Translations under genes and position numbers: made by a program
Source of the DNA: Escherichia phage vB_EcoM_MM02
Length of the DNA: 64,000 nucleotides
Reading direction: 5' to 3' (one strand)
Sequence record: MK373784.1
The notes under the pieces: generated by a model
The model's input: only the letters and a program-made list of their open reading frames with translations
The model's database searches: none
Told to the model about the DNA's origin: nothing
Shown: piece after piece, positions 40,599 to 64,000 of the stretch
Layout of the letters: every line of letters starts with the position of its first letter
How positions within the stretch are numbered: position 1 is the first letter of the stretch

Positions 40599-40599
40599 A

Positions 40600-42557: not shown

Positions 42558-42620
42558 GATATTTTCCTCATTTTAAGACGATAGGAAGATAATAACATGT
42601 CTTCCTATCGTTGTACATTA

Positions 42621-42821: not shown

Positions 42822-42959
42822 TTTGTGTTCCAGGCCCCATTTTCATCGATGAACTTAATCCAGTCATTTACAGACCATTTAGTTGTATCACCCTTTGGAT
42901 TAACATTTAAAGTATATAATCCCTGCTTAAAAAGCATTCGTTTGATATTCATAATTTCC

Positions 42960-43850: not shown

Positions 43851-43854
43851 CTGG

Positions 43855-44461: not shown

Positions 44462-44463
44462 AA

Positions 44464-44679: not shown

Positions 44680-44789
44680 ATTTACCCTTAATTAACTAAG
44701 CATTGATAATCATTAAACTATATTGCGAATAAAATTCTGGACCAAAACGAAAAATCATATCATTTATAGTATCCATAATGTAATTCAAT

Positions 44790-47074: not shown

Positions 47075-47886
47075 AATTCTAATTTATCCTTTTGAAATTC
47101 TTCGTCTAAATATGGGTTCCAACCCATTTTAAACCTTTTGATGAAATTATCAATTCTAAATTTCGGTAAGTTTAAATCCGCAAAAATAGATGATTTACTT
47201 TTAAAATCTGGACCTAAATAATCATATAAAATTTCTGCGTATTTTAACCATAATATACAAGTACCGGATTTAATTGCGTTCGGAGTTTTCCAAGGTTTTA
47301 CACCATACATCGGATTTCCACTTCCTTTATGCCTGATAGAAGATGAAATTCCAATTTTAATTTTAGCTTCCTTTGTATGCGAAAATCCACGATGCGGATT
47401 TTCTTTCCAGTATTTTTTAGAAGCTTCTGATATTTTCTTTCTGGCTAAATTAGTATGATGCTTTCCATAAAATCCATTATTTTTGCCTTTATTACGATTT
47501 CTTTTAATCATGGTTATTGATTGCTTTTCTCTAGTTTCTTTAGAAGGAGAAATACCATATGTCGTAAATTTGCCATCAGCATATGCTAAATTAAAATACT
47601 CTTTATTCCATACATCTTTTTCTATATTCTTTTGAAATTCAGCTTCAATGCTAGTTATTTGTTCATCTCCGACTAATTGAAAATATAATATTTCAACTTT
47701 CGGCGTTTCTTTCAATAAGGCTTTTTGAAATTCGGAAGATGACGAAGACGAATAATAAAATTTACCATTTTTATCAATAATATTCGTTCCATCAAAAGTG
47801 CAATTGGTTTTACTTCCAATGTAATAATATGGTGGGGTTTTAGCATTAATTCTATTAATAAATGATAGTTTATATACTACATTCAT
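47065..47886 (-). mobile_element. free-standing GIY-YIG homing endonuclease gene (Seg/I-TevI-like) with NUMOD3 repeats
   Basis: 273 aa; GIY-YIG core VYKLSF...PPYYYIGSKTN; NUMOD3-like repeats GKHHTNLARKKISEA, SHTKEAKIKIG; overlaps nrdD start by 10 nt. Confidence 0.7.
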
Positions 47887-48356
47887 TTTAAACTCTTTCT
47901 AAGCTGCTTTTTGAATGAAGCTATTAATTGTGTTTTAGTATCAGATTCATTATATTCAAATCCTCTTTGAAGCATCTCAGCCATCATTTCCTCTTTACCT
48001 AGTCTTGAGAACTCTTTAGTTTTGTCTGGAACAAAATTAGGATGGATATTATTATCAGAATAATCTTGTTTCAAATAAGCAAGAAGAGCTTCAAGCCATT
48101 CGAGGTAATCAACGTTTTTACCTTTAAGACCAGAACGGTTGAACTTATGCTTCATTTGGCCTTCTGCTGCGTTGCACAGAGAACAGAGTAACCCACGAAC
48201 TCTACCGGCTTTTGGCCCGTTTAATTCGTGGTCGTGGTCAAGATGGTTACCTTGAACATCAGGGTCTAATTCACGGTGGCAAATAGGACACTTACCATTC
48301 TGTGCATCATAAAATTTTTGTTTTTCTTCTTTATATTTTGCGCCTGATAATAACAT
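47883..48356 (-). CDS. 49: endonuclease VII (Holliday-junction resolvase), gene 49
   Basis: 157 aa; CPICHRELDPD...HLDHDHELNGPKAGRVRGLLCSLCNAAEG matches my memory of T4 endo VII. Confidence 0.9.
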   Translation of the reverse strand: MLLSGAKYKEEKQKFYDAQNGKCPICHRELDPDVQGNHLDHDHELNGPKAGRVRGLLCSLCNAAEGQMKHKFNRSGLKGKNVDYLEWLEALLAYLKQDYSDNNIHPNFVPDKTKEFSRLGKEEMMAEMLQRGFEYNESDTKTQLIASFKKQLRKSLK

Positions 48357-48391
48357 GATAAACCCTTACCTTAAATAGATAAGGGTATTTA

Positions 48392-48817
48392 TTAACTTAA
48401 ACGTCTTTCTAAATATTCAATGTATTCTGCGGCTGCTTGCATCAGGTTACCTTCATAGCCGTCGTTATTTTCTTGTCCGGCTAATTTAGCTAATGCATAA
48501 GAAATTCGTTCACCTTCGAATTCACCAAGTTTACTACCTAGCACATCCGCAATATCAGCCGAATCAATTTCTTCGAGTTCATCTATTGAATGGGATTCCC
48601 AGAAGCACCAAAGAGAAGTATCACGGTCATAGATGCAAAGTTTCTCACCTGTGTTCAACATCACTTCAATAATGCCATGGTCGCCATAACCATCTTCGGT
48701 AGTAGTACCAATTACCTTGATGATCGTATCTTTCTTTAATTCAGGAAACTTGACTTGTAGTTCTTCATCTTCTTTAACAATCTTGAACCATTTACCGCGA
48801 GTTTCAGAAATATTCAT
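48392..48817 (-). CDS. hypothetical acidic protein
   Basis: 141-aa ORF. Confidence 0.4.
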   Translation of the reverse strand: MNISETRGKWFKIVKEDEELQVKFPELKKDTIIKVIGTTTEDGYGDHGIIEVMLNTGEKLCIYDRDTSLWCFWESHSIDELEEIDSADIADVLGSKLGEFEGERISYALAKLAGQENNDGYEGNLMQAAAEYIEYLERRLS

Positions 48818-49117
48818 ATCAATATTCTCTATAAAAGTTACGATGAGAACGTTTAGCTTTGCGAAGCTGGCGTTTAGTAGGACGAACCGTAAATGGTCGT
48901 CCGGAGAAAAAATTTGGTTCAGTTTTAATCAACACATACCAATCGTGTTCGCCACTTTTTAATAAACGGTATAACAATTTAACTTGCATAATAATCTCTT
49001 CCCATTTCCAAATCAATCATATCGTTTACTGTAGGTTCATCATAACACGTTTCTTCGTCGTTGTAAACTGTTTCGACGTCTGGCTCGACAGTTTCCCATC
49101 GAGCGACATACCATGGC

Positions 49118-49426
49118 TTAACGGTCACACCAATAGCTCGATACTTCAAAATCGGGTTCATCATCATTCCAGGACCAGGGACCAATAGGAATCCATTTAC
49201 CGTCATCAGTGACGTTATATTCTTCAGGTTCTAGTCCAACGTATTGCCATTGGACTTCATAAGCAGTGCCACCAATTACGACGGTGTTTTCACCCCAGTG
49301 GTTAGCAACGGCAAAGTCAATACCTTCTTCCTTTGCCAGTGAAACCATGTATTCATAGAGTTTATATTCCAGGTCGTCTTCATTACCGTCACCCAGATAA
49401 ATTGTTTGTCCACTTAATTCTATCAT
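49118..49426 (-). CDS. hypothetical protein
   Basis: 102-aa ORF. Confidence 0.3.
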   Translation of the reverse strand: MIELSGQTIYLGDGNEDDLEYKLYEYMVSLAKEEGIDFAVANHWGENTVVIGGTAYEVQWQYVGLEPEEYNVTDDGKWIPIGPWSWNDDEPDFEVSSYWCDR

Positions 49427-49612
49427 AATTCCGCCATAAATTCGTCAATCATTTAAAGTTCCAGAATGAAGCACCGACCAGAAATAAAGGCCAACAAATC
49501 ATAGACGTCAGCCACCAACAAAAATCACCTGCACCGAAATCATCTAATTTAGCTAGGGTCTTAGCATAGCCAATACCAATGATAAGATACAAAACACCTA
49601 ACATTAATTCAA

Positions 49613-49876
49613 TCATTTGAAATATTCTCGCAACTCATTAAAACCGCCAATATGACTTCCGTCAGGAGCAAACACTTGAGGCATAGTCAATCCGACTTGT
49701 GATTCACGTCCAAGCTTAACCAGAAGCTCAGCAATTTTCTCATCATCAAAAACACCTTTTTCTGGCATAACGTTAATGAATTCGAATGGCTGTTTCTTAA
49801 TAGTCAGCAATCGTTTCGCATTATCACAATAAATGCATTTATGAATAGTAGAGTCATACCCGTACACTTTAAACAT
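49613..49876 (-). CDS. nrdC: glutaredoxin/thioredoxin NrdC
   Basis: Trimmed to ATG with RBS (87 aa); MFKVYGYDSTIHKCIYCDNAKRLL... with CIYC active site matches my memory of T4 NrdC. Confidence 0.85.
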   Translation of the reverse strand: MFKVYGYDSTIHKCIYCDNAKRLLTIKKQPFEFINVMPEKGVFDDEKIAELLVKLGRESQVGLTMPQVFAPDGSHIGGFNELREYFK

Positions 49877-50282
49877 TATTTTTCCTTTCATCGATTAAAT
49901 ATGCAACGCCAAATACAATACATGTAATAAAACCTGTGATACAGATAGAAACCAACAACACCGTACCAAAGAACCAAATCAAGTTATCTTTAGTAGTTTG
50001 TTTGATATCCATCTCACGAATTTCTATAGCTATAGTATCACCTTTATTCAGAAGCGTATAAAACGACGGTGATACATGCCTGTCAAAAACTCGTCCTTGC
50101 TCATCTTTATAGACGGCAATAAATTCTAATTTAGAATATTTTCCTGTAGATTGACCTGAAATTAATTCCACTACCTCCACAGGAATTACTTTAGTTTCCA
50201 TGTAAGTATTTTGGCTGTTCCAAATGAATGGAATAATAGCAAAAACTAAAGCTGCGATAAAACAACGAAGGCTATATCTCAT
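49869..50282 (-). CDS. membrane protein
   Basis: 137 aa; N- and C-terminal hydrophobic helices. Confidence 0.35.
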   Translation of the reverse strand: MRYSLRCFIAALVFAIIPFIWNSQNTYMETKVIPVEVVELISGQSTGKYSKLEFIAVYKDEQGRVFDRHVSPSFYTLLNKGDTIAIEIREMDIKQTTKDNLIWFFGTVLLVSICITGFITCIVFGVAYLIDERKNNV

Positions 50283-50587
50283 TATAATGTTCTCTCAAAT
50301 TTGTGGAAGCATTTACGGCATTTCAATTTCAAGTTATCACTGGTCCAGTTAACCAGTTGGACTTGGATAGTTCCACATTCCGGGCATGGATGTTTTGCTG
50401 CCGATTTGGCAGCATTTTCACGTCGTTCAACCATTTTCATTATTTCGTTCCATGCTGGAGGAACGAACTCTTCTTCACCATGAATTTTATCTCGCTGGAC
50501 AAATTCAATCTTTGAACTATCATCAATAAACTTAACTAAGCCATGATTAGTGCTCATATCAATATCCTCTAGAAGACGTAGGTTCAT
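50282..50587 (-). CDS. zinc-ribbon protein
   Basis: 101 aa; CPECG...CRKC. Confidence 0.35.
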   Translation of the reverse strand: MNLRLLEDIDMSTNHGLVKFIDDSSKIEFVQRDKIHGEEEFVPPAWNEIMKMVERRENAAKSAAKHPCPECGTIQVQLVNWTSDNLKLKCRKCFHKFERTL

Positions 50588-51537
50588 TATAACACCTCAA
50601 TGGCATTTCGTAAACCATCCGCTTTCGCGTTCAGAGCTTTTAACGATTTAGTTTGTTCTGCAATCTGGGCTTCGACTTCTTTCAGACGAGATTTGAGATA
50701 TTCGCGTTCTTCTCTTAAGTTATCAACTTTTTCTGCTTTAGGCTCTTTAATAGGCTTAGGCTTATACTCGTTAGGGTTCTTCAACTTAATTTGAATGCGA
50801 GAACTGTATAACATTGAACCATTATCTTCGGTTTCATCATACATTTCTACCACGTCCATGATTCTTAACATCATGCGAAGTTTATAAGACAGCGAACGAA
50901 TGGTTTTATTGTGCTTCTTAATTTCTTCAGCTTTCATGGTGCCGAGATTACGTGAGTAATAATAAGGAACCTGAATATCAATTGATAATGATGCGGTACC
51001 ATTACCGGTTGGTTTGAACACTGCAGTAACCCAATCTTTAGCATGAACTGTATTTGTACGATCATCGCCGCCTGTGAATAATTTACGAGAATGTTTAAAA
51101 AGCATATTCACTTGGTTATTGAATTCACAAGCAAATTTATCAGCAAATTTAGTTTCAGGAATGGTAGTTAACCAATCAGCCAAATGAGTCTTTTTAACAT
51201 CATTAACAATAGTGAATTCAACCAAATCGGTTTTAGATGTCACAGATTTAATAAAGCTCGGCTTCATAAAGTTTTTAATGTTATCGCGAGCTACAGTAGA
51301 AGATAATAAACGAGAACGTTTGAACCATTGAAGCAGTGTCCCTAATGAATGAGAATATGCATTTTGAGTATCTTTACAGATATGATTTTCTTGGCCTATG
51401 TATGTACCAAAATCGCGAAGAATACCACTTACTACATCTCGGTGTGGAACATCAAATCCTAGTACACCAGAAGCACGTTGGGCATGAACGTTAGCGATAA
51501 GACCTGCAAAGTATTCAATGTAATGTGAACGTGTCAT
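50587..51537 (-). CDS. hypothetical protein with C-terminal coiled coil
   Basis: 316 aa; preceded by repeated promoter element. Confidence 0.4.
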   Translation of the reverse strand: MTRSHYIEYFAGLIANVHAQRASGVLGFDVPHRDVVSGILRDFGTYIGQENHICKDTQNAYSHSLGTLLQWFKRSRLLSSTVARDNIKNFMKPSFIKSVTSKTDLVEFTIVNDVKKTHLADWLTTIPETKFADKFACEFNNQVNMLFKHSRKLFTGGDDRTNTVHAKDWVTAVFKPTGNGTASLSIDIQVPYYYSRNLGTMKAEEIKKHNKTIRSLSYKLRMMLRIMDVVEMYDETEDNGSMLYSSRIQIKLKNPNEYKPKPIKEPKAEKVDNLREEREYLKSRLKEVEAQIAEQTKSLKALNAKADGLRNAIEVL

Positions 51538-51565
51538 AATATTTTCCTCTCGTTAAGATAAATTC

Positions 51566-51595
51566 ATTATACTCCAACCATCCTTGGTTGTAAAC
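51566..51595 (-). promoter_or_regulatory. early-promoter cassette, repeat copy
   Basis: Identical 30-mer attatactccaaccatccttggttgtaaac. Confidence 0.5.
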
Positions 51596-51599
51596 TGAT

Positions 51600-52559
51600 T
51601 TATGATTTTAACGCATTCATTGCGTTAAAAAGTTTAGAGTACTGCAACTGGAGCTTGGTAACTACTTGTTGAGCATCACGAAGCTTAGCTTGTGCTTTGT
51701 CAAGTTCAACAGACAGTTGGTCCATAGTGGCCTTGATTTGATTATAATGGTAATCTTCGACCGGAAGAAGGTCATTAGAAACATTTAGTTTTACTGCAGA
51801 CAGTTTGCACACATTTGGCAAACCTTTAAACATTGATTTACCCGAAGTAGAATAAGCACTTAGGACTTCGGCCTGTTCAATTGGGGTTGCAGTAATTGAC
51901 GCTTCGAACGTTGCATTTTCCTTTTTAAGATTTTGATAGTATTCAGAGTCTTTGTGCCACCATGGCGCAGGAACCTTTTTACCAATAGATACACGAGCCT
52001 GGATAGCGATATGGCCCTTATTCTTGATAGTGTTGATAATATTAAGCTCACGAGAATAAATTGCTTTAATCTGGTGGATATTATCACCTAAAACTTCCAA
52101 CGCTTGGTGGAATACACGAGCAACGTTATCATTCTTAGGTTTATACGTAAGAGTGAACTCGTTCTCACTGATAACCATGATTTCTAACTTATCGTAAGTA
52201 TATTTCAAATGTTTCATGTTAATTGCTTGAGGACGAATACGAGAAGCAATGGCCATCAGATTGTTAAGGTTATTCCGGAACTGCTTAGCGAAATATTGTC
52301 CTTCACCGCCAATACAAAAATTACGAAGTTTCTGTTTGGCCAATAAACGGCTGAACTCGCCATTTTTAATGAACTCTTTAACGGGTGTGTTAGTAACGCA
52401 TTCAAATTGAGTAAACTTACGAGAAGTAATACCATAATATGAACAGACTTCCTCAATCTCTTCAGGAGTCTTTACAGGCATACGGATAGGATTAGGTCCT
52501 GGAGTATATGCGTTCGAGGTAAATTCTTTGATAAGTTCTCTACGTGTAATAAAAGCCAT
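51600..52559 (-). CDS. hypothetical protein with C-terminal coiled coil
   Basis: 319 aa; preceded by repeated promoter element. Confidence 0.4.
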   Translation of the reverse strand: MAFITRRELIKEFTSNAYTPGPNPIRMPVKTPEEIEEVCSYYGITSRKFTQFECVTNTPVKEFIKNGEFSRLLAKQKLRNFCIGGEGQYFAKQFRNNLNNLMAIASRIRPQAINMKHLKYTYDKLEIMVISENEFTLTYKPKNDNVARVFHQALEVLGDNIHQIKAIYSRELNIINTIKNKGHIAIQARVSIGKKVPAPWWHKDSEYYQNLKKENATFEASITATPIEQAEVLSAYSTSGKSMFKGLPNVCKLSAVKLNVSNDLLPVEDYHYNQIKATMDQLSVELDKAQAKLRDAQQVVTKLQLQYSKLFNAMNALKS

Positions 52560-52585
52560 TTTATATTCCTCATGTTGAAAAATTT

Positions 52586-52615
52586 ATTATACTCCAACCA
52601 TCCTTGGTTGTACAT
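52586..52615 (-). promoter_or_regulatory. early-promoter cassette, repeat copy (-35 variant GTACAA)
   Basis: attatactccaaccatccttggttgtacat. Confidence 0.45.
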
Positions 52616-53610
52616 CATTCCTTAAGAAGTTTTACTACTTGAATAAGATTAGCTCGTTCTGTTTTATTTTTACCGTTTAAGCCTGCTAATCGTGAGATTT
52701 CATCGTCAGTCTGTTGAATAGTTACATTAAGTTCGTTAATCAAAGCTTCAAAGTATTTGATTTGCTCGGCATGTTTTGATTCAAATTTCTGAACAGGAAT
52801 AACGTCTTGGTTCAGTTCATCAATAAGGTCTTTAAGAGCATCTTCTTGGTTGATATCATATTCAACTTCTTTTATTTCTTCAACGAGCTCGTCTTTATAT
52901 CTAACGTCTTTTAGTCCTGGTGCTGGTCCTGAAATCTCTTCTTTAAGAGTACAAACATATCCAATACGGTATCCAATGCCGTCTCGCTTGATATCAACTT
53001 CGTCGATAAATCCACAATGTTTAAGTCCAGAGCCGATTATGTCAAAATATCCTTGACGTCGTCCTTCAAACGTTACACGAACTACTAAGACAGTTTTGCC
53101 ACCGACCTTTTGAAGCTCACATTTATAAAAGTTTGTTGAACCTGAATAACATGGATGAGTTTTAAAGTTCATCTGACGATCTAGGCCCATTTGTAAACGT
53201 GCTGTTACGGCCATAAAACGTGTTTGGTTCTCGTTAAGATGAGCAACAATCCATTTCAAAGGCATTTTACCCTGTTCACGGCCGAACAAATCAGTACGTC
53301 CTAGATTACGCAGGATGTTGTTAGAGTTAATCATCGACAGAACGTTAAGTTTATTCAGCGCGCTGAAGATTCCATCAGCCATTGATTTTCCATAACCTTT
53401 ACACGCTTTAATAAGTGCTCGCGGCAGATTAGTATAGATTTCAGACGGCATATGAAAATCAAATTTACTAGTCAGTAATTGATGAACTTGGATAGCAATT
53501 TGCTCATAATTAAGTGCTCTGCGATCGTTATGGTCTTTAAACCATACTTTAATCTGTGAAGCACATAAACCGTTAATTTCATGTTTTACCGCATCAGATG
53601 TAATGCTCAT
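52615..53610 (-). CDS. hypothetical protein with C-terminal coiled coil
   Basis: 331-aa ORF. Confidence 0.4.
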   Translation of the reverse strand: MSITSDAVKHEINGLCASQIKVWFKDHNDRRALNYEQIAIQVHQLLTSKFDFHMPSEIYTNLPRALIKACKGYGKSMADGIFSALNKLNVLSMINSNNILRNLGRTDLFGREQGKMPLKWIVAHLNENQTRFMAVTARLQMGLDRQMNFKTHPCYSGSTNFYKCELQKVGGKTVLVVRVTFEGRRQGYFDIIGSGLKHCGFIDEVDIKRDGIGYRIGYVCTLKEEISGPAPGLKDVRYKDELVEEIKEVEYDINQEDALKDLIDELNQDVIPVQKFESKHAEQIKYFEALINELNVTIQQTDDEISRLAGLNGKNKTERANLIQVVKLLKE

Positions 53611-53672
53611 AACTATTTCCTCAGATTGAATTGGAACTCAAAACCATTATAACCCGTCCTTGGGTAAAGCGT

Positions 53673-54200
53673 TTATGCGTGAACCGTCTTTAAACGTTCT
53701 TCAAATTTCCGAAGAGTACTAATACGTTCTGCTTTCTGTTTTGTATAGTTTGCAATACGTTCTGAAGTGAGAGCGTATCGTTCGTTTACTGATTCTTTCA
53801 TGAAGTCAGGGATTTCACGAGAAGCTTTAATTTCATCAAACTTATCGAGTACTGCCTGGTCTTCAGCGATTAAATTTTCGTACATCTCGATATCTTTCTT
53901 GATAAACTCGATATCTTCCTGGGTTACTTTGGATAAACGAGATGCTTTATCCTTTTTGTACTGCTCGTTAGTTTCACGAGACCAGAATAATGTACGTTTT
54001 TTGTTAGTGTTTTTGTAGACTTCCACAATTCCAACTGAATCGATGATAACAATCCAATTCCAGCGAGATTTGAAAATCTGGCCTCCGTCCACGGTAATCT
54101 CGTTACCATAAGCAATGTCATTAAAGAACTTACTTTGTGCTTCAGATTTAAATTTACCGTCGTTATAATTTACCAGGTTGAAAATATCTTTAGCGTTCAT
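53673..54200 (-). CDS. hypothetical protein
   Basis: 175 aa; GGAGGT RBS; promoter cassette upstream. Confidence 0.4.
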   Translation of the reverse strand: MNAKDIFNLVNYNDGKFKSEAQSKFFNDIAYGNEITVDGGQIFKSRWNWIVIIDSVGIVEVYKNTNKKRTLFWSRETNEQYKKDKASRLSKVTQEDIEFIKKDIEMYENLIAEDQAVLDKFDEIKASREIPDFMKESVNERYALTSERIANYTKQKAERISTLRKFEERLKTVHA

Positions 54201-54227
54201 GTTTTACCTCCAGTAGTTGATAGGTCT

Positions 54228-54256
54228 ATAATAACATAACCATAGACCTTGTAAAC
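54228..54256 (-). promoter_or_regulatory. sigma70-like early promoter (GTTTAC, 17 bp, TATTAT)
   Basis: gataggtctataataacataaccatagaccttgtaaac; 8-bp inverted repeat aggtctat/atagacct around the -10. Confidence 0.45.
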
Positions 54257-54258
54257 AA

Positions 54259-54546
54259 CTAAAAGAAACTTTTTTCGGTATTTTTTCCACTGAACCAAAC
54301 AGACTTCGGGATTTTTTGTAATTTTTCAGATTTAAGTTTCTCTTCCTGTTCTTTCTTATATACACCCTTGTCGTACTGGAGCATCTCTATGGCATTCTTT
54401 TGCAAACGATCTAAGGTAATTAAGGCTTTAGTTTTTCCTTTCAAGGAAGAGTCCTGGCGAACCTCCTCGCTATATTGCATAGTAGAACTAACCATACGAT
54501 GAGCATAGAGTTCGACTGCGGCTTTAATTTTTTGCATAAAATCCAT
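54259..54546 (-). CDS. hypothetical protein
   Basis: 95-aa ORF. Confidence 0.3.
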   Translation of the reverse strand: MDFMQKIKAAVELYAHRMVSSTMQYSEEVRQDSSLKGKTKALITLDRLQKNAIEMLQYDKGVYKKEQEEKLKSEKLQKIPKSVWFSGKNTEKSFF

Positions 54547-54683
54547 AACATATCCTCTTTGATTTGTACATCATTATTTTAAATATTTCTATGCCCTCAG
54601 TAGGTTCCTGGTGTCCTTCTTTGAGGTAAGCCATATGATTATTCATCTTTATGGCTTTTGTTACCTCAGAACTTCCTATAAGC

Positions 54684-55664
54684 TTATTTCAGTAAAGTAA
54701 CTTCCGAGATTTCCTCCCAACCATCTTTATCAGTTGAAATAAAATCTGCTACATAAAGAGCCGTACGTAATGATACATTGCGAAGACGAGATACGTTAGC
54801 CTTCATCCAGGACAATGCTTTATACGTTTCTGCATCAGTCAGACCACGTTTCTGCATCATGTCAGTAGATAATATTACATCTTCAACTCGAACCATAATC
54901 TCTTCATTAGAGTGTACTCCAAGGTCGAGATACACTGAACGAGATACTAAAGCTTGAAGGTGTGGAGCAAGTTTCGAACCCCGTTCTAACTCTTTATCGA
55001 TATCAACGTTTGTAATGAAAACGATAGTACCTTCAAACTCAAATTCTTTATCAATACCCTTATCCTCGAGATAAGATGACGCAGTGCTCCAACAAACTTT
55101 GCGTTTATCTCCGGTGTCTAATGCTGCTTTAAGAAGATTCAAGATGTCCATATCTGAGAATACGTCAACGTCGTCGATTAAGAGAACGCTGTCTGCATCA
55201 CGGTTGAGCCAAAGTTGTTCGTAAAGGCCAATACCAGAGATTTTACCATTAATGCTTTTGTATTTGATGAAACCGTTATCATTAGCATTATTAAGTGCTT
55301 TATCCAGAGAATACGTCTTACCAATACCGGCTGCACCTGAAATAATGAGTGAACGAATTTTGCCATCGATAATGCCATTCGTCATCATGTTCATTACTTT
55401 AAAGCGTTTGTTGATACGAGTTTTCATATCTTCAGTGCTTTCAACAACTGCAACTGGTGATGTCTCAACTCCTTCCATTACGATGTCTGATTTGAAGACC
55501 CATACTCCACGTTCAGAACCATCAATCATAACGAAAATTTTACCATCACCTAAGTGGGAACATTCAGGATTAAGCTTTGCCGGGAACCAGGTCTTTGTGG
55601 CAACATAAGAACCAGAGATTTCGTTATTACGATAGATACCTTTTTTGATTTGAATGTTGAACAT
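54684..55664 (-). CDS. P-loop (AAA-like) ATPase of unknown function
   Basis: Walker A ISGAAGIGKT, Walker B VLLIDDVD; start trimmed to ATG with GGAG RBS (track start lies within the promoter leader). Confidence 0.5.
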   Translation of the reverse strand: MFNIQIKKGIYRNNEISGSYVATKTWFPAKLNPECSHLGDGKIFVMIDGSERGVWVFKSDIVMEGVETSPVAVVESTEDMKTRINKRFKVMNMMTNGIIDGKIRSLIISGAAGIGKTYSLDKALNNANDNGFIKYKSINGKISGIGLYEQLWLNRDADSVLLIDDVDVFSDMDILNLLKAALDTGDKRKVCWSTASSYLEDKGIDKEFEFEGTIVFITNVDIDKELERGSKLAPHLQALVSRSVYLDLGVHSNEEIMVRVEDVILSTDMMQKRGLTDAETYKALSWMKANVSRLRNVSLRTALYVADFISTDKDGWEEISEVTLLK

Positions 55665-55782
55665 TTTATTCTCCAATTTACTCATTTCGTTTCGATAGGT
55701 CTATAGTATCATATCCTAAAAGCATGTACACTACTTTTTAAAAATATTTTAACCCCCTAAAGGGACCCGAAGGTCCCCACAT

Positions 55783-56049
55783 TTACTTATCGCACTTAGC
55801 AACATAATTAGGCATATCACAGAATACGGAGCGAGTAACTACTCGTCCCTTTGACCATGCTTCAGTTGCTTGTCCGGCCGTGCTATTAATATAGCTTGAT
55901 TTGATATTCTCAATACCCTGAGAATGTGATGCATTTACCGAACCGTTGGAAGGCCCAGAAGACTGGTTACCACCAGCTCCTGTACCTGTGGTAGCACCAA
56001 CAGAGAATGCCATCATTACTGCGAATAAACCAATTACTAATTTTTTCAT
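55783..56049 (-). CDS. small secreted Gly/Ser-rich protein
   Basis: 88 aa; signal peptide MKKLVIGLFAVMMAFSVGA. Confidence 0.4.
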   Translation of the reverse strand: MKKLVIGLFAVMMAFSVGATTGTGAGGNQSSGPSNGSVNASHSQGIENIKSSYINSTAGQATEAWSKGRVVTRSVFCDMPNYVAKCDK

Positions 56050-56080
56050 ATTTACCTCAAGTTAAGAGTTATTTATCTAC

Positions 56081-57067
56081 TTATTTATAGTAAGAATTAT
56101 GATTTTCGAGATAGACTTGCTCAAGGAAATCATCCCAGAAACTCATATCTACTTTTTGTTGCATACCGTTCTTAGCGGCTTGTTCTGATGCTTGTTCTAC
56201 CTGGTCAACAATGTCTTCCAGGAATTCTTGTACAGTTTTAAACGTATGTTTACCAAGCTTAACATCGAGAATAAATGGAGCATCCTGAAGTGGGTAAACC
56301 AGGTCGCCGGTTTTGTAAATTTCCAATAATTGAAGTCCACCACGACATGCATGACTCAATGCTTTCCAGTCAATACCTTCGTTAGCTTCTGCCTTACGAG
56401 CACGTTCACCATAGTTCTCTTCCAGTTTAACCAGGATGGCATTGAACTCTTTATTGGTTAACGTATCTTGGAATTTACGGTCTAACAGATTATAGAATGT
56501 TTGCTTACCTGTTTTCTCGTTTTCGGTTTCAACCCACGAAGCAAATTCACCTACAGGCAGAACATTCTTCATATGTGATAAACGAATTACTGCACCATTA
56601 TCAAAGTATTGTCCCCATTCATTAGAACGTTTAAGGGCTTGACGAAGAACAGCCAGTCGAGAACCCTTGACGCCGTATTTAGAAGCTTGCTTACGGACAT
56701 ACCCTAAATAAGATTTCATGTTAGTGGTATAGAAACGAGACCTGTTATCTTGAATATATTTCCATACATCAGGCAAATCAGATTTAACTACTAGACTTTG
56801 TGGAGTGTGAAGCATATCTAATGCGACGGTTTCACCATCCGCAGCTAGTTTAAAGAAATATTTGAGACTATACAACTCATGGTCCACGTCGTCTTTTGTG
56901 TTCTTAGAAGATGTGTTATTCGTGTTCTTGCTCATGTGTTCTTTAACGTTACCAGTCAAGATATCACGAGCATGAGGGACATAAATTTCTTTAAAATCGA
57001 CGTCAGATTCGGGAGTAGACGTTCCGTAAAGGTGGCTACCAAAGTAAGCCTTAACAATCGTTTTCAT
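56081..57067 (-). CDS. nucleotidyltransferase, pol-beta superfamily
   Basis: 328 aa; N-terminal GS-x(9)-DVD motif (YFGSHLYGTSTPESDVDF). Confidence 0.5.
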   Translation of the reverse strand: MKTIVKAYFGSHLYGTSTPESDVDFKEIYVPHARDILTGNVKEHMSKNTNNTSSKNTKDDVDHELYSLKYFFKLAADGETVALDMLHTPQSLVVKSDLPDVWKYIQDNRSRFYTTNMKSYLGYVRKQASKYGVKGSRLAVLRQALKRSNEWGQYFDNGAVIRLSHMKNVLPVGEFASWVETENEKTGKQTFYNLLDRKFQDTLTNKEFNAILVKLEENYGERARKAEANEGIDWKALSHACRGGLQLLEIYKTGDLVYPLQDAPFILDVKLGKHTFKTVQEFLEDIVDQVEQASEQAAKNGMQQKVDMSFWDDFLEQVYLENHNSYYK

Positions 57068-57540
57068 TATTTAGCCTTATATTCAAGAGTAGGACAGACT
57101 TTTTCTTTACGAGCTTTAAGGTATTCACCTATTAATGATTTCTTACGTTCAATAGGCTCAAGTCCATTTTTAATTCGTTCTTGGTTTTGTGCAATGAGCT
57201 CAATTTCTTTATAATATTTTCTGTCGGTATATTTGTCTAACAACCAAGACGGACCAATTACCAACCCGGTAGCAATAAAAGCCATGACTGCTACCATTAA
57301 AATGCCTACACCAATTGAGGCTGGAACTAATGTCCATAGACTGCTAAAAACAAAGAATTTAGTTAAAATTTCCTGGCCAATGATTGTGACTGCTGCTAAA
57401 ATCGCAAATCCAATAATTGAAACAGCCAATACAGGGATTAACGTTTTCCAAAAATAAGCACACAACGTTTTCGGACGATTCCATGTACTATTGAACGCGG
57501 CATAAATTTTAAAGTGCCAAGAGTTTTCATTGATAATCAT
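57067..57540 (-). CDS. integral membrane protein
   Basis: 157 aa; 3-4 predicted TM helices. Confidence 0.4.
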   Translation of the reverse strand: MIINENSWHFKIYAAFNSTWNRPKTLCAYFWKTLIPVLAVSIIGFAILAAVTIIGQEILTKFFVFSSLWTLVPASIGVGILMVAVMAFIATGLVIGPSWLLDKYTDRKYYKEIELIAQNQERIKNGLEPIERKKSLIGEYLKARKEKVCPTLEYKAK

Positions 57541-57550
57541 AATAATTTCC

Positions 57551-58096
57551 TTATTTCAAGGTTGGGATAATAGAATCAAGATAAGCTTTAAGAGCAACTG
57601 CTTCATCTTTGTCTAATGTAATGATATGTTGACGAAGGTCATCAATTTGGCGAATAACTACGACATCACCATCTTCATAAGAAGGATTAACGCCTAGGAC
57701 TGTTGTATAGTCAGGGCGGTCCTGATTTGTAATAAAAGCATTACGGCATTTAGCCCATTGAAGTTTGGCCTTTTTGGCTGTTTCAGATTCCATTAATTCT
57801 TTCACCTTAGTGACGAATGTTTTCCAATTATTAATAGAAAAACATTCGTCTTCAGTTTCGATATTGGCCGCGTTGTAAAGACCAGGATAAAAACGAACTT
57901 GGAGGTCTTCACCAATGTTAATTACCTCTCGACGACGTCCAGACGGATTGAGTTTCAAAATCTTATCCAGTTCCATAGGAAGAATAGTAGCAGCATCATC
58001 TTCTTGTGTCAGAACATACACATAACCACGTTTTTCGATACATAAATCACCGAACAACTCGGTTGTTTCAATTACAGTTTTCATATTATTCACCAA
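57551..58096 (-). CDS. hypothetical protein
   Basis: 181-aa ORF. Confidence 0.4.
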   Translation of the reverse strand: MVNNMKTVIETTELFGDLCIEKRGYVYVLTQEDDAATILPMELDKILKLNPSGRRREVINIGEDLQVRFYPGLYNAANIETEDECFSINNWKTFVTKVKELMESETAKKAKLQWAKCRNAFITNQDRPDYTTVLGVNPSYEDGDVVVIRQIDDLRQHIITLDKDEAVALKAYLDSIIPTLK

Positions 58097-58429
58097 TTAA
58101 AGTTTCAACAAAATTCACCAAAGCATTCTGGCAAGCGTCAACCTGATTTTCATAAAAATCTCCGTTATCATTTACCGCATGATAAGCTACGTCATTCAAA
58201 TCTGAATCAGCTTCACGTAAGTCACGGATAAGGTCCATCAATTTATTAGCTTGTTCACGGGTCATTTTACCATACTCGTTTCAATAAGATTCACTATGCC
58301 GTTTACCATGTTATAGGTAAACATCGGATAATTGTATTGTACTACAACATAAGCGATAAGCAAAAGTTTCATTTTGTTCTCCGTTTGTTTTGATAGGACT
58401 ACTATAACATAGTCCTACCAAGATGTAAA

Positions 58430-58663
58430 CTACCGATTGTGTTTTAAATGTTGATAAAGTTCTTCAACTTGTTTTGGGTCCAAAACAATTAGGTCATTTT
58501 CTTGGCGAAGATAAATCCATCCATTATCCCCAGGACCATTTTTACAAAACATCACCACCATATCATCATCTTCAGCGCTTTCAGGTAAAAGTTCAAGTAC
58601 ACCGTCTTCAGATTTTCCAGTATAATCGTAAAGCATAATATCCTCACATAATCTCGTTAACAT
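58430..58663 (-). CDS. hypothetical protein
   Basis: 77-aa ORF. Confidence 0.3.
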   Translation of the reverse strand: MLTRLCEDIMLYDYTGKSEDGVLELLPESAEDDDMVVMFCKNGPGDNGWIYLRQENDLIVLDPKQVEELYQHLKHNR

Positions 58664-58823
58664 ACATTTGCAATTCGGTGTGGGCTTCAGCCATCTTTTT
58701 CATAGCTCTGTTAATGTCGATGTCTCCATCTTCGCAACCATGAGCATTTTCCCAATCGGATACAGAATTAGCATACTCTTCAATCAAAAACATCAACTTA
58801 GAAATCTTTTCTTTACGTGTCAT
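58644..58823 (-). CDS. hypothetical protein (start trimmed)
   Basis: Track ORF begins inside the promoter; ATG at about 58823 follows RBS GAGGAGAA. Confidence 0.3.
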   Translation of the reverse strand: MTRKEKISKLMFLIEEYANSVSDWENAHGCEDGDIDINRAMKKMAEAHTELQMYVNEIM

Positions 58824-58924
58824 AACGTTCTCCTCTAGTAAGTAAGGACTACTATAACACAACCTGAGGAGAAGTAAACTGATAGATGCCAAAAAGCCCC
58901 AACCATAAGGAAGGGGCTAGTAAA

Positions 58925-59227
58925 TTAGATAGATGTAGGCTCTAATTTTATTTTCATGAACTCGGCAAATTGTCTGGCAGTTTTTATGCCTTGTTCATGA
59001 CATTCAAATGCATCATCACAGGGACTATTTTTGTAATGCTTTGCCATATACTTATAGAATTTTTCAGAATTCTCGACATTTTGAATTTCAAACAAAGTAT
59101 ATACGTTTTTAATCCCTGATTCCATAAAGTTATCAAAATATGGGTCGATATGTGCAGTACCAACGATAGGAGTTGTTGCTGCAAAAAACCCCAGCATCGC
59201 TATGACAGCTATCGCTCTTAAGGCCAT
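58925..59227 (-). CDS. small secreted protein
   Basis: 100 aa; signal peptide MALRAIAVIAMLGFFAATTPIVG. Confidence 0.35.
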   Translation of the reverse strand: MALRAIAVIAMLGFFAATTPIVGTAHIDPYFDNFMESGIKNVYTLFEIQNVENSEKFYKYMAKHYKNSPCDDAFECHEQGIKTARQFAEFMKIKLEPTSI

Positions 59228-59239
59228 ATAGGCCTCCTG

Positions 59240-59452
59240 TTAATTTTGGCCAGTATTTATTTTTCGCCTTTGGACGGCCTTAACATCTGCGAGGTATTTT
59301 TCCAGCTTGCGCTTGCGTGTATAATCAGCTTTAGAACCAGTTTGACGGATATCCTCGTTTAAATGAGAAATAGAATGTCCTAATTCTCTTCGGATTTCAT
59401 CTAATTGGGTTACAGTAAGATTACGAAGTTGTCTTTCGTTTAATTGCTGCAT
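59240..59452 (-). CDS. hypothetical protein
   Basis: 70-aa ORF. Confidence 0.3.
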
Positions 59453-59479
59453 ATATACCTCTTGGTTAGATATTAGTAT

Positions 59480-60061
59480 TTATAACAACCCTGTCAAATC
59501 GTTCCAATGCTTCCGGCATAATGACACATATCTATCGGTATCACCAATTTCAATTTGACTGCCATCTGTAATTGGAAGTCCGTCTTCCGTGACTCTAGCT
59601 ACCATTGTGGCCTTTTTACCACAATGACAGACACCTTTAAGTTCAACAAGCTTATCGGCAATAGCCATTAATGCTTGAGAACCTTCAAATAGATTACCTT
59701 TAAAATCTGTTCGTAGTCCATATGCCATTACCGGCACATTGTATACGTCAACAATACGACTAAGTTGATACACCTTTTCAGTAGTTAAGAACTGAGCTTC
59801 GTCAACAAATACGCAGTGAATATCCTTTTGTGCTGCAGCCCATTTATAGAATTCAAAGATATCCATGTCTTTTGTAATTATATTGGCGTCCTGACGAATA
59901 CCAATACGAGAGACTATTTCACCTTTTGAATCGCGAGTATCAATAGCCGGTTTAAGAACTAATACACCCATGCCACGTTCTTTATAGTTATGTGCGGCAG
60001 TAAGTAATGAAGCAGACTTACCAGCGTTCATAGCGGCATAGGTAAAAATTAAACTAGCCAT
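59480..60061 (-). CDS. tk: thymidine kinase
   Basis: 193 aa; P-loop AAMNAGKSASLL, C-terminal zinc-ribbon Cys; matches my memory of T4 Tk. Confidence 0.85.
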   Translation of the reverse strand: MASLIFTYAAMNAGKSASLLTAAHNYKERGMGVLVLKPAIDTRDSKGEIVSRIGIRQDANIITKDMDIFEFYKWAAAQKDIHCVFVDEAQFLTTEKVYQLSRIVDVYNVPVMAYGLRTDFKGNLFEGSQALMAIADKLVELKGVCHCGKKATMVARVTEDGLPITDGSQIEIGDTDRYVSLCRKHWNDLTGLL

Positions 60062-60249
60062 AAGAGTCCCTTATAGTGAATTCACGTAGTCAATGAGTTC
60101 TTGTTCTTTCCTGTCAAATGATTCCATCAATGCTTGATATTCTTCGTCCGTCAAAGGAGCATATTCATCGTACGCATTGGTGGCTGCTTGCTCATCCAAT
60201 AGGTCATGGATAAGTTCGAACAGTTTAGTTTTCTCTTCTTTAGTCAATT

Positions 60250-60477
60250 TCATTTAGGTTCACCTTCTTTAACGAAATCTGGGTAAGGGTAAAATCCTGA
60301 GTAAAACCCTTCACCTTTATGATTGCTACAACCTTTGTTCGAACAGTAACACCAATAATCAAAATCACAAGCCATTTCGTCATTGCATAAAGCAAAAACT
60401 ACAGGCCATTCGCATTTTTCGCATTTAGCACCTGTAAGAATTTTTGTTTGACTCATAGCCATGTCACCTTTAAGCAA
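60250..60477 (-). CDS. small Cys-rich protein
   Basis: 75 aa; CEKCEW...CYCSNKGC. Confidence 0.3.
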   Translation of the reverse strand: MLKGDMAMSQTKILTGAKCEKCEWPVVFALCNDEMACDFDYWCYCSNKGCSNHKGEGFYSGFYPYPDFVKEGEPK

Positions 60478-60661
60478 TATTCTTCTACATGTTGTTTACG
60501 GCCTTTCTTATCAATAAAGGTATATTCAACGAATGTTCCGATGTAGTCTTTATCTACATCATGTGGACTATTAATTGGACATTTGGTACGACAAATGCGT
60601 TCCCATTGACGAATAATTACTGCCTTATTCTTTGGGTCATATGGATGTGGATAATGTATAT

Positions 60662-61159
60662 TCATAATAACGGTTCCCAATCAACAATCACAATTTCTAG
60701 TTTAGTAGAATACGTATCTAAAATCTCTTCGATGACATCCCAGTTTCCACCACCAATACCTGCACCAATTCTTGGCATATAAATTACAGGCTTTATTATC
60801 TTATTCTTTCCGAATTCATTTAATTCTATTATACAATTCATTAAAGCAGAGTACTCAAAATTAGGTCCCGGCTCAAACTGTGTATAAAGATTAAAGCAAT
60901 AAGCTTTATGGGTCTTAAAATATTTTTCATAAACCGAATAAGTCCCTAGTTTAGACTCGTCTCCGAATTCGGTTTGAAGTTTATCGGCTTCCAGAATTTT
61001 TGGATAAGCCTTTGCTAATTGTCCTGCCACACCCGCGCCCATTGTATGAAAACAATTACACCCATGAGCAATATTATTACCTTTAGAAAACAGGGCGACA
61101 ATATCGCCCTTGATATAGTTTTTAATCACTTGCTGCAAGTCCTCTATTATAAGAGTCAA
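60662..61159 (-). CDS. macro-domain protein (TARG1/DarG-like ADP-ribosyl hydrolase family)
   Basis: 165 aa; AHGCNCFHTMGAGVAGQL and PRIGAGIGGGNW resemble the two signature loops of TARG1-type macro domains. Confidence 0.55.
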   Translation of the reverse strand: MTLIIEDLQQVIKNYIKGDIVALFSKGNNIAHGCNCFHTMGAGVAGQLAKAYPKILEADKLQTEFGDESKLGTYSVYEKYFKTHKAYCFNLYTQFEPGPNFEYSALMNCIIELNEFGKNKIIKPVIYMPRIGAGIGGGNWDVIEEILDTYSTKLEIVIVDWEPLL

Positions 61160-61469
61160 CTAGACGGTCCACCATAGAATTGCATGCTGCCTTATCTTTA
61201 GGTTCCGCCACCGAGCATTCTAATATTTGCCATTTTTTATAGTATCTTTTAATTAAGGTAGACGCCTTGAACCTACTAGACGCCCCATCTTTTTCTCCGT
61301 CTTTATACGCGTATAACAATTTTTGTGAAAAATCTACTTTACACTCTTGACTTTTACCACAGTAATCAGACGCCGTTCTGTTTGTATACTCCGTTACATC
61401 AGTATATGTAGTATTAGCAAAAGCGTTAAATGAAACCAAGCCAACTATTAAAGCCAACATTTTGGTCAT
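61122..61469 (-). CDS. small secreted Cys-containing protein
   Basis: 115 aa; signal peptide MTKMLALIVGLVSFNAFA. Confidence 0.35.
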   Translation of the reverse strand: MTKMLALIVGLVSFNAFANTTYTDVTEYTNRTASDYCGKSQECKVDFSQKLLYAYKDGEKDGASSRFKASTLIKRYYKKWQILECSVAEPKDKAACNSMVDRLVDSYNRGLAASD

Positions 61470-62008
61470 TCTTTTATTTCCAGTAGTTTATTTGATTTAA
61501 GGTAATTAGCCTTTTCTAGGACTTCAGAAGCATATTTACTTCCAGCACTTGTCTTCCATCCCGCATTATATGAGGATATAGCTTTTCTTATATCCCCGTT
61601 ATGTATATTTAACCAATAAGAAAATTCGATATAAGCCCATCTGGCTGAATTAGACCGCTTAGATAGCATTTTCTTAATTTGGGCATCAGTCATATTATAA
61701 CCAAGTTGGTTAATTCTTGCCCTCATCGTTGGTAGATAATTTTGGAACATTCCATACGCATGGTGACCTTTCTTATCTTTAAGATTAATACCGGCTGATG
61801 ATTCCTGCCATAGTATTGCGGCCATTATGTATCCAAGTCCTTTCTTATGCATATTTTCATGCGTTTTAAATTTTCCATCCTTAGAAAACTGTTCCCCAAA
61901 CTGATAAGCATAATTCAAGTTATCGAGTTGGACATTACTAAAAGTATGCTCGGAGCTATGTGCTGATAATGAAAGAGCAAATAGACCAGCGAGTAGTGCT
62001 TTTCTCAT
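61466..62008 (-). CDS. secreted lytic-transglycosylase-like (SLT domain) protein
   Basis: 180 aa; signal peptide; SLT motifs WQESSAG (E-S), GMFQ, YNAGW. Confidence 0.5.
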   Translation of the reverse strand: MRKALLAGLFALSLSAHSSEHTFSNVQLDNLNYAYQFGEQFSKDGKFKTHENMHKKGLGYIMAAILWQESSAGINLKDKKGHHAYGMFQNYLPTMRARINQLGYNMTDAQIKKMLSKRSNSARWAYIEFSYWLNIHNGDIRKAISSYNAGWKTSAGSKYASEVLEKANYLKSNKLLEIKE

Positions 62009-62016
62009 GTTTACCT

Positions 62017-62475
62017 CTAGATTTTAATCACTGCTTTAGAAGCTTTTCCTGGTAGTCGTTTATTGTTAATAATAGCCATTCTGCATTGAAGAGTCTTCAT
62101 TTTGAATGCCGGATTTTCGCGACAAACTGTAAGTCCTAACCAAAGATTTCCGTCAGTTATTTCTAAACGGCCTGGACGATACTCGACACCTTCGACAAAA
62201 TCTTCATCAACATCTGGACGTGCCGGCATTGATAAAAATTCTGCAACTTCTTTAACGTGATTTTTTACTTTATGAAATAATTCAAAAACGTAATTCTCAT
62301 CTATTTCTCTCTGGATGGCACGATCTAAGAGATGTTGAGAATACTTGATATGAAAGCCTGGTAGTCCAAGAGACTTTGCAGCATCTTTTATACCGACATT
62401 TATTTTGCGGAACTCCGTTTCAAAGATTCGACGGAGTTTATTACGGCGGATAAAAACTTCCGAATTGATAGTCAT
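62017..62475 (-). CDS. regB: RegB sequence-specific endoribonuclease
   Basis: MTINSEVFIRRNKLRR...KYSQHLLDRAIQREIDENYVFELFHKVK... matches my memory of T4 RegB; start trimmed to ATG preceded by GAGGAGA. Confidence 0.85.
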   Translation of the reverse strand: MTINSEVFIRRNKLRRIFETEFRKINVGIKDAAKSLGLPGFHIKYSQHLLDRAIQREIDENYVFELFHKVKNHVKEVAEFLSMPARPDVDEDFVEGVEYRPGRLEITDGNLWLGLTVCRENPAFKMKTLQCRMAIINNKRLPGKASKAVIKI

Positions 62476-62481
62476 TTTGAT

Positions 62482-62532
62482 TTCTCCTCTAGTTGACAAG
62501 TCTATAGTAACACAACTAGAGGAGAAGTAAAC
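62482..62532 (-). promoter_or_regulatory. early promoter upstream of regB with -10 in the loop of a perfect 13-bp inverted repeat that includes the regB RBS
   Basis: Arms tctcctctagttg / caactagaggaga; -10 (rc of atagta) at about 62504-62509; -35 gtaaac at about 62527-62532. Confidence 0.5.
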
Positions 62533-62831
62533 TACTCTTTGAAAGGAATTAACTTTTTAACTGCTTTAGATACTTCGTCACGAACCTGATGGAAGTTCTT
62601 GAGCTGTTCAAGGCGTTGTTCGTAATACGCAATCTCATCTTCTTCAAGACAATCGTCAGCGTCTTCTTTCAGATATGCCTTGTACTCATTAAAGAGGGCC
62701 CATAGGCGGTTCTCAAAGTCATCAAGGCTTTGAATTTTCTTGTGCTTCAGAACAAGGCCAAAAGGATTGCTTTCAGTTATGCGTCTAGATGCTTCATAAT
62801 GAGTTCCAAAGCCTGATAGGATTTGAGCCAT
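62532..62831 (-). CDS. hypothetical protein
   Basis: 99-aa ORF. Confidence 0.35.
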
Positions 62832-63265
62832 TAGTATTTTTCCTCAGGTCGAAATACTGCACGACATGCCCACATGCTGGCTTCTTTTAGATGTTGCTTA
62901 GCATACTTAAGAGCCTGCACTGCATCCATATCTTCTTTGGTTTGTTGCTCTGTTTCATTTTCTTTCAAGATATATGCTTCTTCAATCAGAGCATCAAACA
63001 ACAATCCAAGACGGACTTCTGCATCTTTAATAGCGTTCACTTTACCGATTTTATCATCGGTATGCGGCTTGTAGCCTTTGATGTCTTCAATCGACATAAG
63101 GAATTTCCTCATCTGTGGCAAGGTCATATTCGACCAATTGGATAGGCTCATTAATACCATATCCACGTACAGTGATATCAGTTGTCGGATAGTTTCCAGT
63201 AATATCACCCATTCTAAATGATTCAATGAATGATTGCTCGCCTGAGCAACTAAACCAGGCGGCAA
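62831..63265 (-). CDS. hypothetical protein
   Basis: 144-aa ORF. Confidence 0.35.
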
Positions 63266-63310
63266 AACATTTTAAAACATCTTCAGACCCTTCTATAAAC
63301 AATTTAGCCA

Positions 63311-63673
63311 TTATAGACTCTCAGTAAAGGTGCGAGCGATAACGTCACGCTGCTGTTCCGGAGTTAGAGAGTTAAAGCGAACTGCATAACCGGATACACG
63401 GATGGTCAGCTGCGGATATTTTTCCGGATGCTTAACTGCATCTTCTAGAGTTTCACGACGCAGAACGTTAACGTTCAGATGTTGTCCACCTTCAATTTTA
63501 ACTTTAGGTTGATGTTCAATTTCAATTTCACGGGCATTCAAACCGTAGAAAATTTCTGGGTCTACAATAGCGTCTTCTTTAAAAGTCTTAGAGACAATAA
63601 TCCGGGCTTGAGTACCGTCTTCAAAATAAATAGTGCCTTTGTGTGTGCCTTCAAGAATTTGATATGCTTTCAT
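63311..63673 (-). CDS. GrcA/YfiD-like autonomous glycyl-radical cofactor protein
   Basis: 120 aa; C-terminal ...[60 protein letters not shown] carries the RVSGY glycyl-radical motif and matches my memory of E. coli GrcA; 3' half has host-like GC and codon usage. Confidence 0.7.
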
Positions 63674-63679
63674 ATAACC

Positions 63680-63988
63680 TCAATTAGAAAATAAATTTAT
63701 CCAAGTTTTTTCTTTAATCAAAAATGGGTCGGAATTAAACGCCATTAAACTTTGAGTGATTAATCCCTTAAATGGCCCATCAATAAATTCCATTTTGAAA
63801 TGCGGAATACTAGTCATCAACCGTGCATTAGGAGCAGTACAAAGAACCTGCTGCCCTGCGAACGGACCTTTAGTCAAACGATATCGTTTAGGTTTAAAAT
63901 GGTAAATCTCGTAATTTTCTACAAGGGCCCTTTTATTGCATACTGGGCTGTTATAACAATATTCAAAAACTTCAATAGTGGTCATCAT
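63680..63988 (-). CDS. hypothetical protein
   Basis: 102-aa ORF. Confidence 0.35.
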   Translation of the reverse strand: MMTTIEVFEYCYNSPVCNKRALVENYEIYHFKPKRYRLTKGPFAGQQVLCTAPNARLMTSIPHFKMEFIDGPFKGLITQSLMAFNSDPFLIKEKTWINLFSN

Positions 63989-64000
63989 TGCATTCCAATC

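Follow-up and report, generated by a model that had tools for sequence, protein, structure and literature searches.

We found that the window, the whole 64,000-nt stretch of phage DNA analysed here, carries on its minus strand the Mosigvirus ortholog of T4 tk.4/adfM, a gene that likely spans 60662..61129 and encodes a stand-alone macrodomain protein of 155 amino acids. The protein has a predicted macro fold of the ALC1/TARG1-like class, and an Asn/Gln pair in its active site is conserved among its homologs. A counter-DarTG2 function is already on record through the genetics of the T4 ortholog. New from our analysis is that, judging by alignments, a Gln replaces the catalytic Lys of DarG and TARG1 in the T4-type AdfM family. 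Protection of the phage from DarTG2, through removal of thymidine-linked ADP-ribose from its DNA, is in our view the probable function of this gene.

The gene and its locus

The source phage is a Mosigvirus, an RB69-like T-even phage. The maximal open reading frame at 60662..61159 lies on the minus strand, begins with a TTG at 61159 and encodes 165 amino acids; the plus-strand translation of the same interval is riddled with stops. Both motifs named in the original prediction, AHGCNCFHTMGAGVAGQL and PRIGAGIGGGNW, were found in this minus-strand frame. The 165-amino acid reading frame claimed there does exist, but it lies on the minus strand and translation probably starts 30 nt further downstream, yielding 155 amino acids. 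We regard the GTG at 61129 as the likely start because it is preceded by GAGGA at 10-nt spacing, because it overlaps the stop codon of the upstream vs gene as GTGATTAA, because the tk.4 ATG of T4 and RB32 sits at the equivalent codon, and because phage vB_EcoM_G53, which is 99% identical, has a 468-nt CDS annotated there. The TTG version was set aside on these grounds. Alignments with Tequatrovirus homologs begin only at residue 11 of the 165-amino acid frame. The in-frame upstream extension (61130..61159, minus strand), which is contained in the 3' end of vs and bears the GAGGA ribosome-binding site, is unlikely to form part of the translated macrodomain protein. The gene ends in TGA, and its length and position are as in G53, RB32 and T4. 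Two plus-strand ORFs that overlap it (60489..60782 and 61019..61177) lacked supporting homology, and we took them to be spurious.

All 155 residues of the protein aligned with T4 Tk.4, at 85% identity and 95% positives. Because of this full-length identity and the same place between vs and tk.3, sequence comparison identifies the gene as the Mosigvirus ortholog of T4 tk.4/adfM. It is adjoined upstream by the vs ortholog (valyl-tRNA synthetase modifier; 61122..61469, minus strand) and downstream by the tk.3 ortholog (DUF7202; 60453..60665, minus strand), whose ATG overlaps the adfM TGA stop as ATGA. Since starts and stops overlap at both junctions, the vs-tk.4-tk.3 block looks translationally coupled, and the overlap of vs with the adfM start in itself suggests such coupling. 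The order vs, tk.4, tk.3 is common to T4, RB32 and G53, and the longer order regB, vs.1, vs, macrodomain gene, tk.3 ... tk is the same in T4 and RB32. The 3.2-kb neighbourhood matched Mosigvirus and related T-even phages at 99% identity. A promoter and terminator scan of 59-64 kb returned fewer promoter-like sites than shuffled sequence and was uninformative on expression timing.

A terminator-like hairpin, AGGGCGATATTGTCGCCCT followed by GTTTTCT, was observed at 61092..61110 (minus strand), within codons 7-13 of the macrodomain gene. The predicted RNA fold of 61070..61160 had a minimum free energy of -19.5 kcal/mol (z = -1.8). The stem-loop is identical in RB32 tk.4, and the Yersinia phage fPS-65 record has a terminator annotated under its macro gene. 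Such a hairpin could act on the vs-tk.4 transcript, by attenuation or stabilisation, or its presence could follow simply from the conserved coding sequence for KGDIVAL. A small gene at 60250..60477 (minus strand), between the orthologs of tk.2 and tk.3, encodes a phage zinc-binding domain (PF23895); the matching T4 interval has no such annotated gene, and RB32 has extra small ORFs there. The vs.1 ortholog (61466..62008, minus strand) matched the SLT lytic transglycosylase domain below threshold (18.8 bits, cut-off 21.3). Every long ORF of 1..64000 is read from the minus strand, an arrangement shared with the early region of T4, and scans of the whole 64,000-nt window detected no tRNA and no Rfam match at gathering score.

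Macro fold and active site

The protein matched the Pfam Macro family (PF01661) at 28.2 bits, against a cut-off of 22, over profile positions 2-117 of 118, and PHROG 335 with an E-value of 2e-66. Sequence matches in the PDB were BT1257 (8e-11), yeast Poa1p, SCO6735, DarG macrodomains and TARG1. With a family profile, the E-values of these matches improved to 1e-17 to 1e-11, and the TARG1 match (1.4e-16) was ungapped around the active-site strand. The AlphaFold2 model, built from a 75-sequence alignment, reached a pLDDT of 95.8 and a pTM of 0.91. It has a three-layer α/β/α macro fold with two glycine-rich ADP-ribose-binding loops. A Foldseek search with this model gave TARG1 (3e-10) as the top match, with Poa1p, DarG, BT1257 and SCO6735 also among the best. 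In both structure and sequence, the nearest neighbours were TARG1, DarG, SCO6735/BT1257 and Poa1p, and not MacroD-type or viral macrodomains. Among defence and annotation models, only those for DarG were matched (PADLOC, 1.2e-9; NCBIfam, 3e-8); the NCBIfam DarG equivalog NF048014 scored 33.3 bits against a cut-off of 250 and covered only positions 4-146 of 338. By these sequence matches and the predicted structure, the macrodomain assignment is far beyond chance, and the tk.4 ortholog belongs to the ALC1-like/TARG1-like class. The original prediction had proposed a TARG1/DarG-like macro domain, with structure prediction against these two proteins as a check; both fold and class are borne out by the sequence matches, the model and Foldseek, with TARG1 on top and DarG among the best matches.

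We located the active-site columns using a profile-to-PDB alignment and an eight-sequence multiple alignment. All coordinates that follow are on the minus strand. The translation check and the multiple alignment placed the H22-G23-C24-N25-C26 motif at 61052..61066. It is followed by the first glycine-rich loop, M30-G31-A32-G33, which would bind ADP-ribose or phosphate (61031..61042; G33 invariant in the alignment). From the profile and the multiple alignment, the N80-L-Y-T-Q84 signature was mapped to 60878..60892, with the Q84 codon CAG at 60878..60880, and the second glycine-rich loop, P119-RIGAGIGGGN-W130, the putative diphosphate-binding loop, to 60740..60775. Both loops match those of TARG1, AHCISEDCRMGAGIA and PRIGCGLDRLQW, column for column in the profile and multiple alignments.

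N25 aligns with DarG N22, PhiKZ AdfM N23 and SCO6735 N27, and H22 with SCO6735 H24 and Poa1p H23. The Q84 column holds the catalytic Lys in TARG1 (K84), DarG (K80) and PhiKZ AdfM (K78), and the essential Gln85 in SCO6735. Across the signature, N-L-Y-T-Q84 is paired with L-I-T-K84 in TARG1, F-P-T-K80 in DarG, F-P-T-K78 in PhiKZ AdfM and M-I-G-Q in BT1257/SCO6735. G126 occupies the column of the TARG1 catalytic D125. The resemblance to the catalytic loops of TARG1 and DarG that had been noted at the outset therefore holds for the fold but not for the active-site chemistry, where Gln84 and Gly126 stand in place of the expected residues. Q84 was invariant in all 121 close homologs and in all 143 sequences of a second alignment (264 in all), the latter comprising the window protein and 142 further representatives of 50%-identity clusters. 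N25 was conserved in 119 of the 121 and in 143 of the 143. As far as these alignments go, the T4-type AdfM family is without the DarG/TARG1 catalytic Lys and without the TARG1 Asp, and has Gln instead. The Asn25/Gln84 pair corresponds to the Asn27/Gln85 pair of SCO6735 and therefore provides a mechanistic link to that enzyme. The phage protein is best described, from its sequence, as a subfamily of its own in the ALC1-like class, with Gln-type chemistry and a TARG1-like loop length.

Counter-defence function and alternative readings

A literature search on tk.4/AdfM returned two relevant reports, the HIDEN-SEQ preprint (November 2025, 10.1101/2025.11.20.689424) and a paper on chimallivirus AdfM (Cell Rep 2026, PMC13309987). 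In earlier work, T4 lacking adfA and adfN was still resistant to DarTG2, which predicted another factor. HIDEN-SEQ recovered tk.4 as the single significant hit when a T4 transposon library was grown on a DarTG2 host; in the same screen, T4 could do without the gene on E. coli K-12, and only DarTG2 made it conditionally essential. T4 with a clean tk.4 knockout was DarTG2-sensitive, and the authors called the gene adfM, for anti-DarT factor Macrodomain. The evidence in that study is genetic only, and ADP-ribose removal from DNA was proposed by analogy (10.1101/2025.11.20.689424). The original prediction that the protein could act as a counter-defence against DarT-type DNA ADP-ribosylation is supported by this work, as the effect has been reported genetically for an 85%-identical T4 ortholog in the same genomic position.

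We take the protein to be a product of the leftward early/middle block regB-vs.1-vs-tk.4-tk.3-tk and propose the following mechanism. When host DarTG2 is triggered, DarT2 would move ADP-ribose from NAD+ to thymidine in single-stranded phage DNA and so block replication. The macrodomain would hold the ADP-ribose by its two glycine-rich loops and hydrolyse the thymidine-ribose bond, restoring clean DNA whichever DarT2 variant had made the mark. Catalysis would probably rely on the Asn25/Gln84 pair and not on the DarG/TARG1 lysine. The model for such chemistry is Streptomyces SCO6735, in which Asn27 locks Gln85, so positioning the distal ribose, and a water held by the backbone acts on the bond.

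SCO6735 clears DNA of thymidine-linked ADP-ribose and rescues cells exposed to DarT (PMC9411070). Its Q85A mutation abolishes thymidine-ADP-ribose hydrolysis and N27S nearly abolishes it, as Asn27 locks Gln85; on DarT-modified DNA, SCO6735 was the fastest of SCO6735, DarG and TARG1 (PMC9411070). The mechanism may not transfer fully to the phage protein, whose sequence has no counterpart of the SCO6735 mobile-loop insertion, Lys89 or Lys34. We also calculated isoelectric points: the window protein is mildly acidic (predicted pI 5.6), against 8.9-9.9 for SCO6735, BT1257 and TARG1. The acidic charge was considered as an argument against DNA binding and dropped, given that PhiKZ AdfM, a proven DNA eraser, has a pI of 5.05 and that the family median is 6.1.

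An alternative is that the protein mainly erases ADP-ribosylation of protein or RNA, either the phage's own Alt/ModA/ModB-type marks or those of host toxins other than DarT2, and that DarTG2 protection is a side activity. The window does encode ADP-ribosyltransferases at 12158..13405, as originally predicted: two Mod-type genes, at 12158..12766 and 12824..13405 (minus strand), match PHROG 832 ('RNA polymerase ADP-ribosylase'). Both products are 30-38% identical to T4 ModA/ModB, far more diverged than the neighbouring srd (68%). For TARG1 and SCO6735, both protein-linked and DNA-linked ADP-ribose are substrates (PMC9411070), and the family is widespread, occurring in 2,798 phage records and in bacteria without a DarT neighbour. 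Against such a main role, T4 tk.4 is needed only with DarTG2, no Mod- or Alt-linked phenotype has been reported for it, and DarG, the closest defence-related relative, is inactive on proteins (PMC9411070). We judge this alternative unlikely as the main function, and action on Mod-type marks could be an additional function of the tk.4 ortholog.

Marginally less likely again is that the protein mainly binds and sequesters DarT2, as AdfA and AdfB do, and does not hydrolyse the DNA adduct. ICP1 AdfB works by direct binding, the canonical catalytic Lys is missing from the phage protein, and catalytic mutants of SCO6735, DarG and TARG1 still inhibit DarT in vitro, SCO6735 most strongly (PMC9411070). 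However, the ADP-ribose loops and the Asn/Gln pair are kept in 264 homologs of widely differing phage and bacterial origin, a pattern more in line with a conserved chemistry on a small molecule than with the binding of toxins that vary. The protein also lacks any equivalent of the C-terminal domain by which DarG binds DarT (155 amino acids; 33 bits against 250), and no DarT neighbour was seen at the 66 bacterial loci surveyed.

The last alternative, an ADP-ribose 1''-phosphate phosphatase or other ADP-ribose-metabolite hydrolase, goes back to legacy names ('phosphatase', the label of PHROG 335; 'contains A1pp phosphatase motif', the note on tk.4 in the T4 record; 'Poa1p-like') and is very improbable, since this annotation is a homology transfer, Poa1p has Ser and not Gln at the Q84 column, and Appr-1''-p has no known source in T4 infection. 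The genetic phenotype, moreover, is DarTG2-specific (10.1101/2025.11.20.689424). Removal of thymidine-linked ADP-ribose from phage DNA is the reading that we retain.

Family distribution and comparison with known systems

Using tblastn, we found relatives of the protein in phages of Escherichia, Klebsiella, Salmonella, Pseudomonas, Vibrio, Acinetobacter and Aeromonas, and in a Bacillus phage (2,798 phage records in total), annotated as 'macro domain protein', 'phosphatase' or 'Poa1p-like'. The family profile matched 1,129 clusters at 50% identity with E <= 1e-30, and 8,587 with E <= 1e-10. Species-representative bacterial genomes contained 372 loci with a relative, of which 66, with 100 neighbouring proteins, were surveyed for gene neighbourhood. 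No recurrent partner emerged from these 66 loci; the largest neighbour clusters had five members and tracked taxonomy, and DarT families were absent from the summary of the Pfam families matched most frequently by the 100 neighbours.

NADAR proteins made up four of the 100 bacterial neighbours, each encoded directly upstream and overlapping the macro start by 3-19 nt, and two of the four also matched the Pfam family of T4 gp30.3/AdfN. These NADAR genes beside Gln-type macro genes come from Ruegeria and Bacteroidales (L039, 3523-4008; L050, 3511-4002; L064, 3472-4008; L069, 3444-3992), and as three of the four loci are from Ruegeria, they represent about two independent occurrences. Such a pair would constitute a two-eraser operon, for guanine-ADP-ribose and thymidine-ADP-ribose, with no DarT nearby. 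NAD-salvage genes (NAPRTase/NAMPT) adjoin two other bacterial loci.

The NADAR neighbours link the family, by association, to DNA de-ADP-ribosylation. The orphan bacterial context fits an ancestry as a genome-protecting eraser, as proposed for SCO6735 (PMC9411070), and not the capture of a DarG antitoxin. Putting these lines together, we offer, with slightly less than even confidence, the reading that T-even AdfM did not arise by capture of a DarG antitoxin and instead belongs to a separate, very large Gln-type clade (at least 1,129 clusters at E <= 1e-30), which is orphan in phages and bacteria, stands occasionally in an operon with NADAR, and removes thymidine-ADP-ribose in the lysine-free manner of SCO6735. 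If so, phages would have recruited two macrodomain lineages for the same counter-defence, the Lys type in chimalliviruses and the Gln type in T-even, rV5-like, Felix-O1-like and other phages. The Gln type might then share the dual DNA/protein range of SCO6735 and act on Mod/Alt marks.

DarTG halts phages via DNA ADP-ribosylation, and T-even phages stack the counter-measures AdfA, AdfN and AdfM. As AdfM is intact, we predict that this Mosigvirus phage should resist DarTG2. An AdfA ortholog (T4 gp61.2, an anti-DarT factor) is encoded at 17823..18473 on the minus strand, with 65% identity. It carries Arg (INRIAS) where T4 has His (INHIAS), which is the RB69-like allele reported to be unable to neutralise the tested DarT1. 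The phage may for this reason be sensitive to DarTG1, depending on adfN, which lies outside the window. Such predictions can be used for host-range prediction and for choosing therapeutic phages.

Like T4 Tk.4, the window protein has 155 amino acids and keeps all family-invariant residues, including N25 and Q84. It differs in belonging to a Mosigvirus and not a Tequatrovirus, in its GTG instead of ATG start, and in 23 changed residues. It would share with AdfN (T4 gp30.3, NADAR), AdfA (T4 gp61.2) and AdfB (ICP1 Gp145) the role of a phage anti-DarT factor, although these have unrelated folds. AdfN is likewise an 'orphan eraser' enzyme, specific for DarT1-written guanine adducts and without action against DarTG2, while AdfA and AdfB are DarT inhibitors and not erasers. 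With Poa1p, whose H23, S30 and F152 were probed in its structures, H22-H23 and T29-S30 align, and the Q84 column holds Ser.

Among the macrodomain enzymes, the ALC1-like SCO6735 of Streptomyces coelicolor and BT1257 of Bacteroides have the same Gln at the Lys position and the same conserved Asn (N27/Q85 compared with N25/Q84). Their mobile loop is about five residues longer than that of TARG1 and DarG. The phage protein has a gap of 5-6 columns opposite this insertion, which bears the DNA-contacting Lys89. It also has Ala32 at the position of SCO6735 Lys34, is acidic where both are basic, and is only 22-31% identical to them. Compared with the DarG macrodomains of T. aquaticus (5M31/5M3E) and M. 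tuberculosis (5M3I), it has Gln84 for the catalytic Lys80 and keeps the equivalent of Asn22 as N25. It differs further from DarG in ending at 155 amino acids, against about 340, with no C-terminal DarT-binding domain, and in having vs and tk.3/DUF7202 as neighbours and no adjacent darT. Human TARG1/OARD1, the top Foldseek match, removes DarT-written thymidine-ADP-ribose (PMC9411070), but its K84/D125 dyad is replaced by Q84/G126 in the phage protein, and its residue at the Asn25 position is Ser.

The same name is borne by the chimallivirus AdfM, PhiKZ gp104, which removes DarT2 marks from DNA in vitro using N23/K78 (Cell Rep 2026, PMC13309987). Like it, the window protein is a stand-alone phage macrodomain that would counter DarTG2. 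The PDB matches of PhiKZ gp104, however, were DarG chains only (9e-25), and it scored 133 bits on the PADLOC DarG model, against 36 bits for the window protein. A BLASTP comparison of the two proteins gave a 23-residue match at 24 bits, and the K78 column of PhiKZ AdfM is Q84 in the window protein. PhiKZ AdfM is also imported into the phage nucleus, a compartment that T-even phages do not have. Judged by sequence relationships, T-even AdfM and PhiKZ AdfM are different macrodomain lineages that share a name and, presumably, a function, so that 'AdfM' now covers two evolutionarily distinct enzymes. The interest that remains in the T-even protein lies in an active site without the catalytic lysine and in two macrodomain lineages apparently recruited independently by phages.
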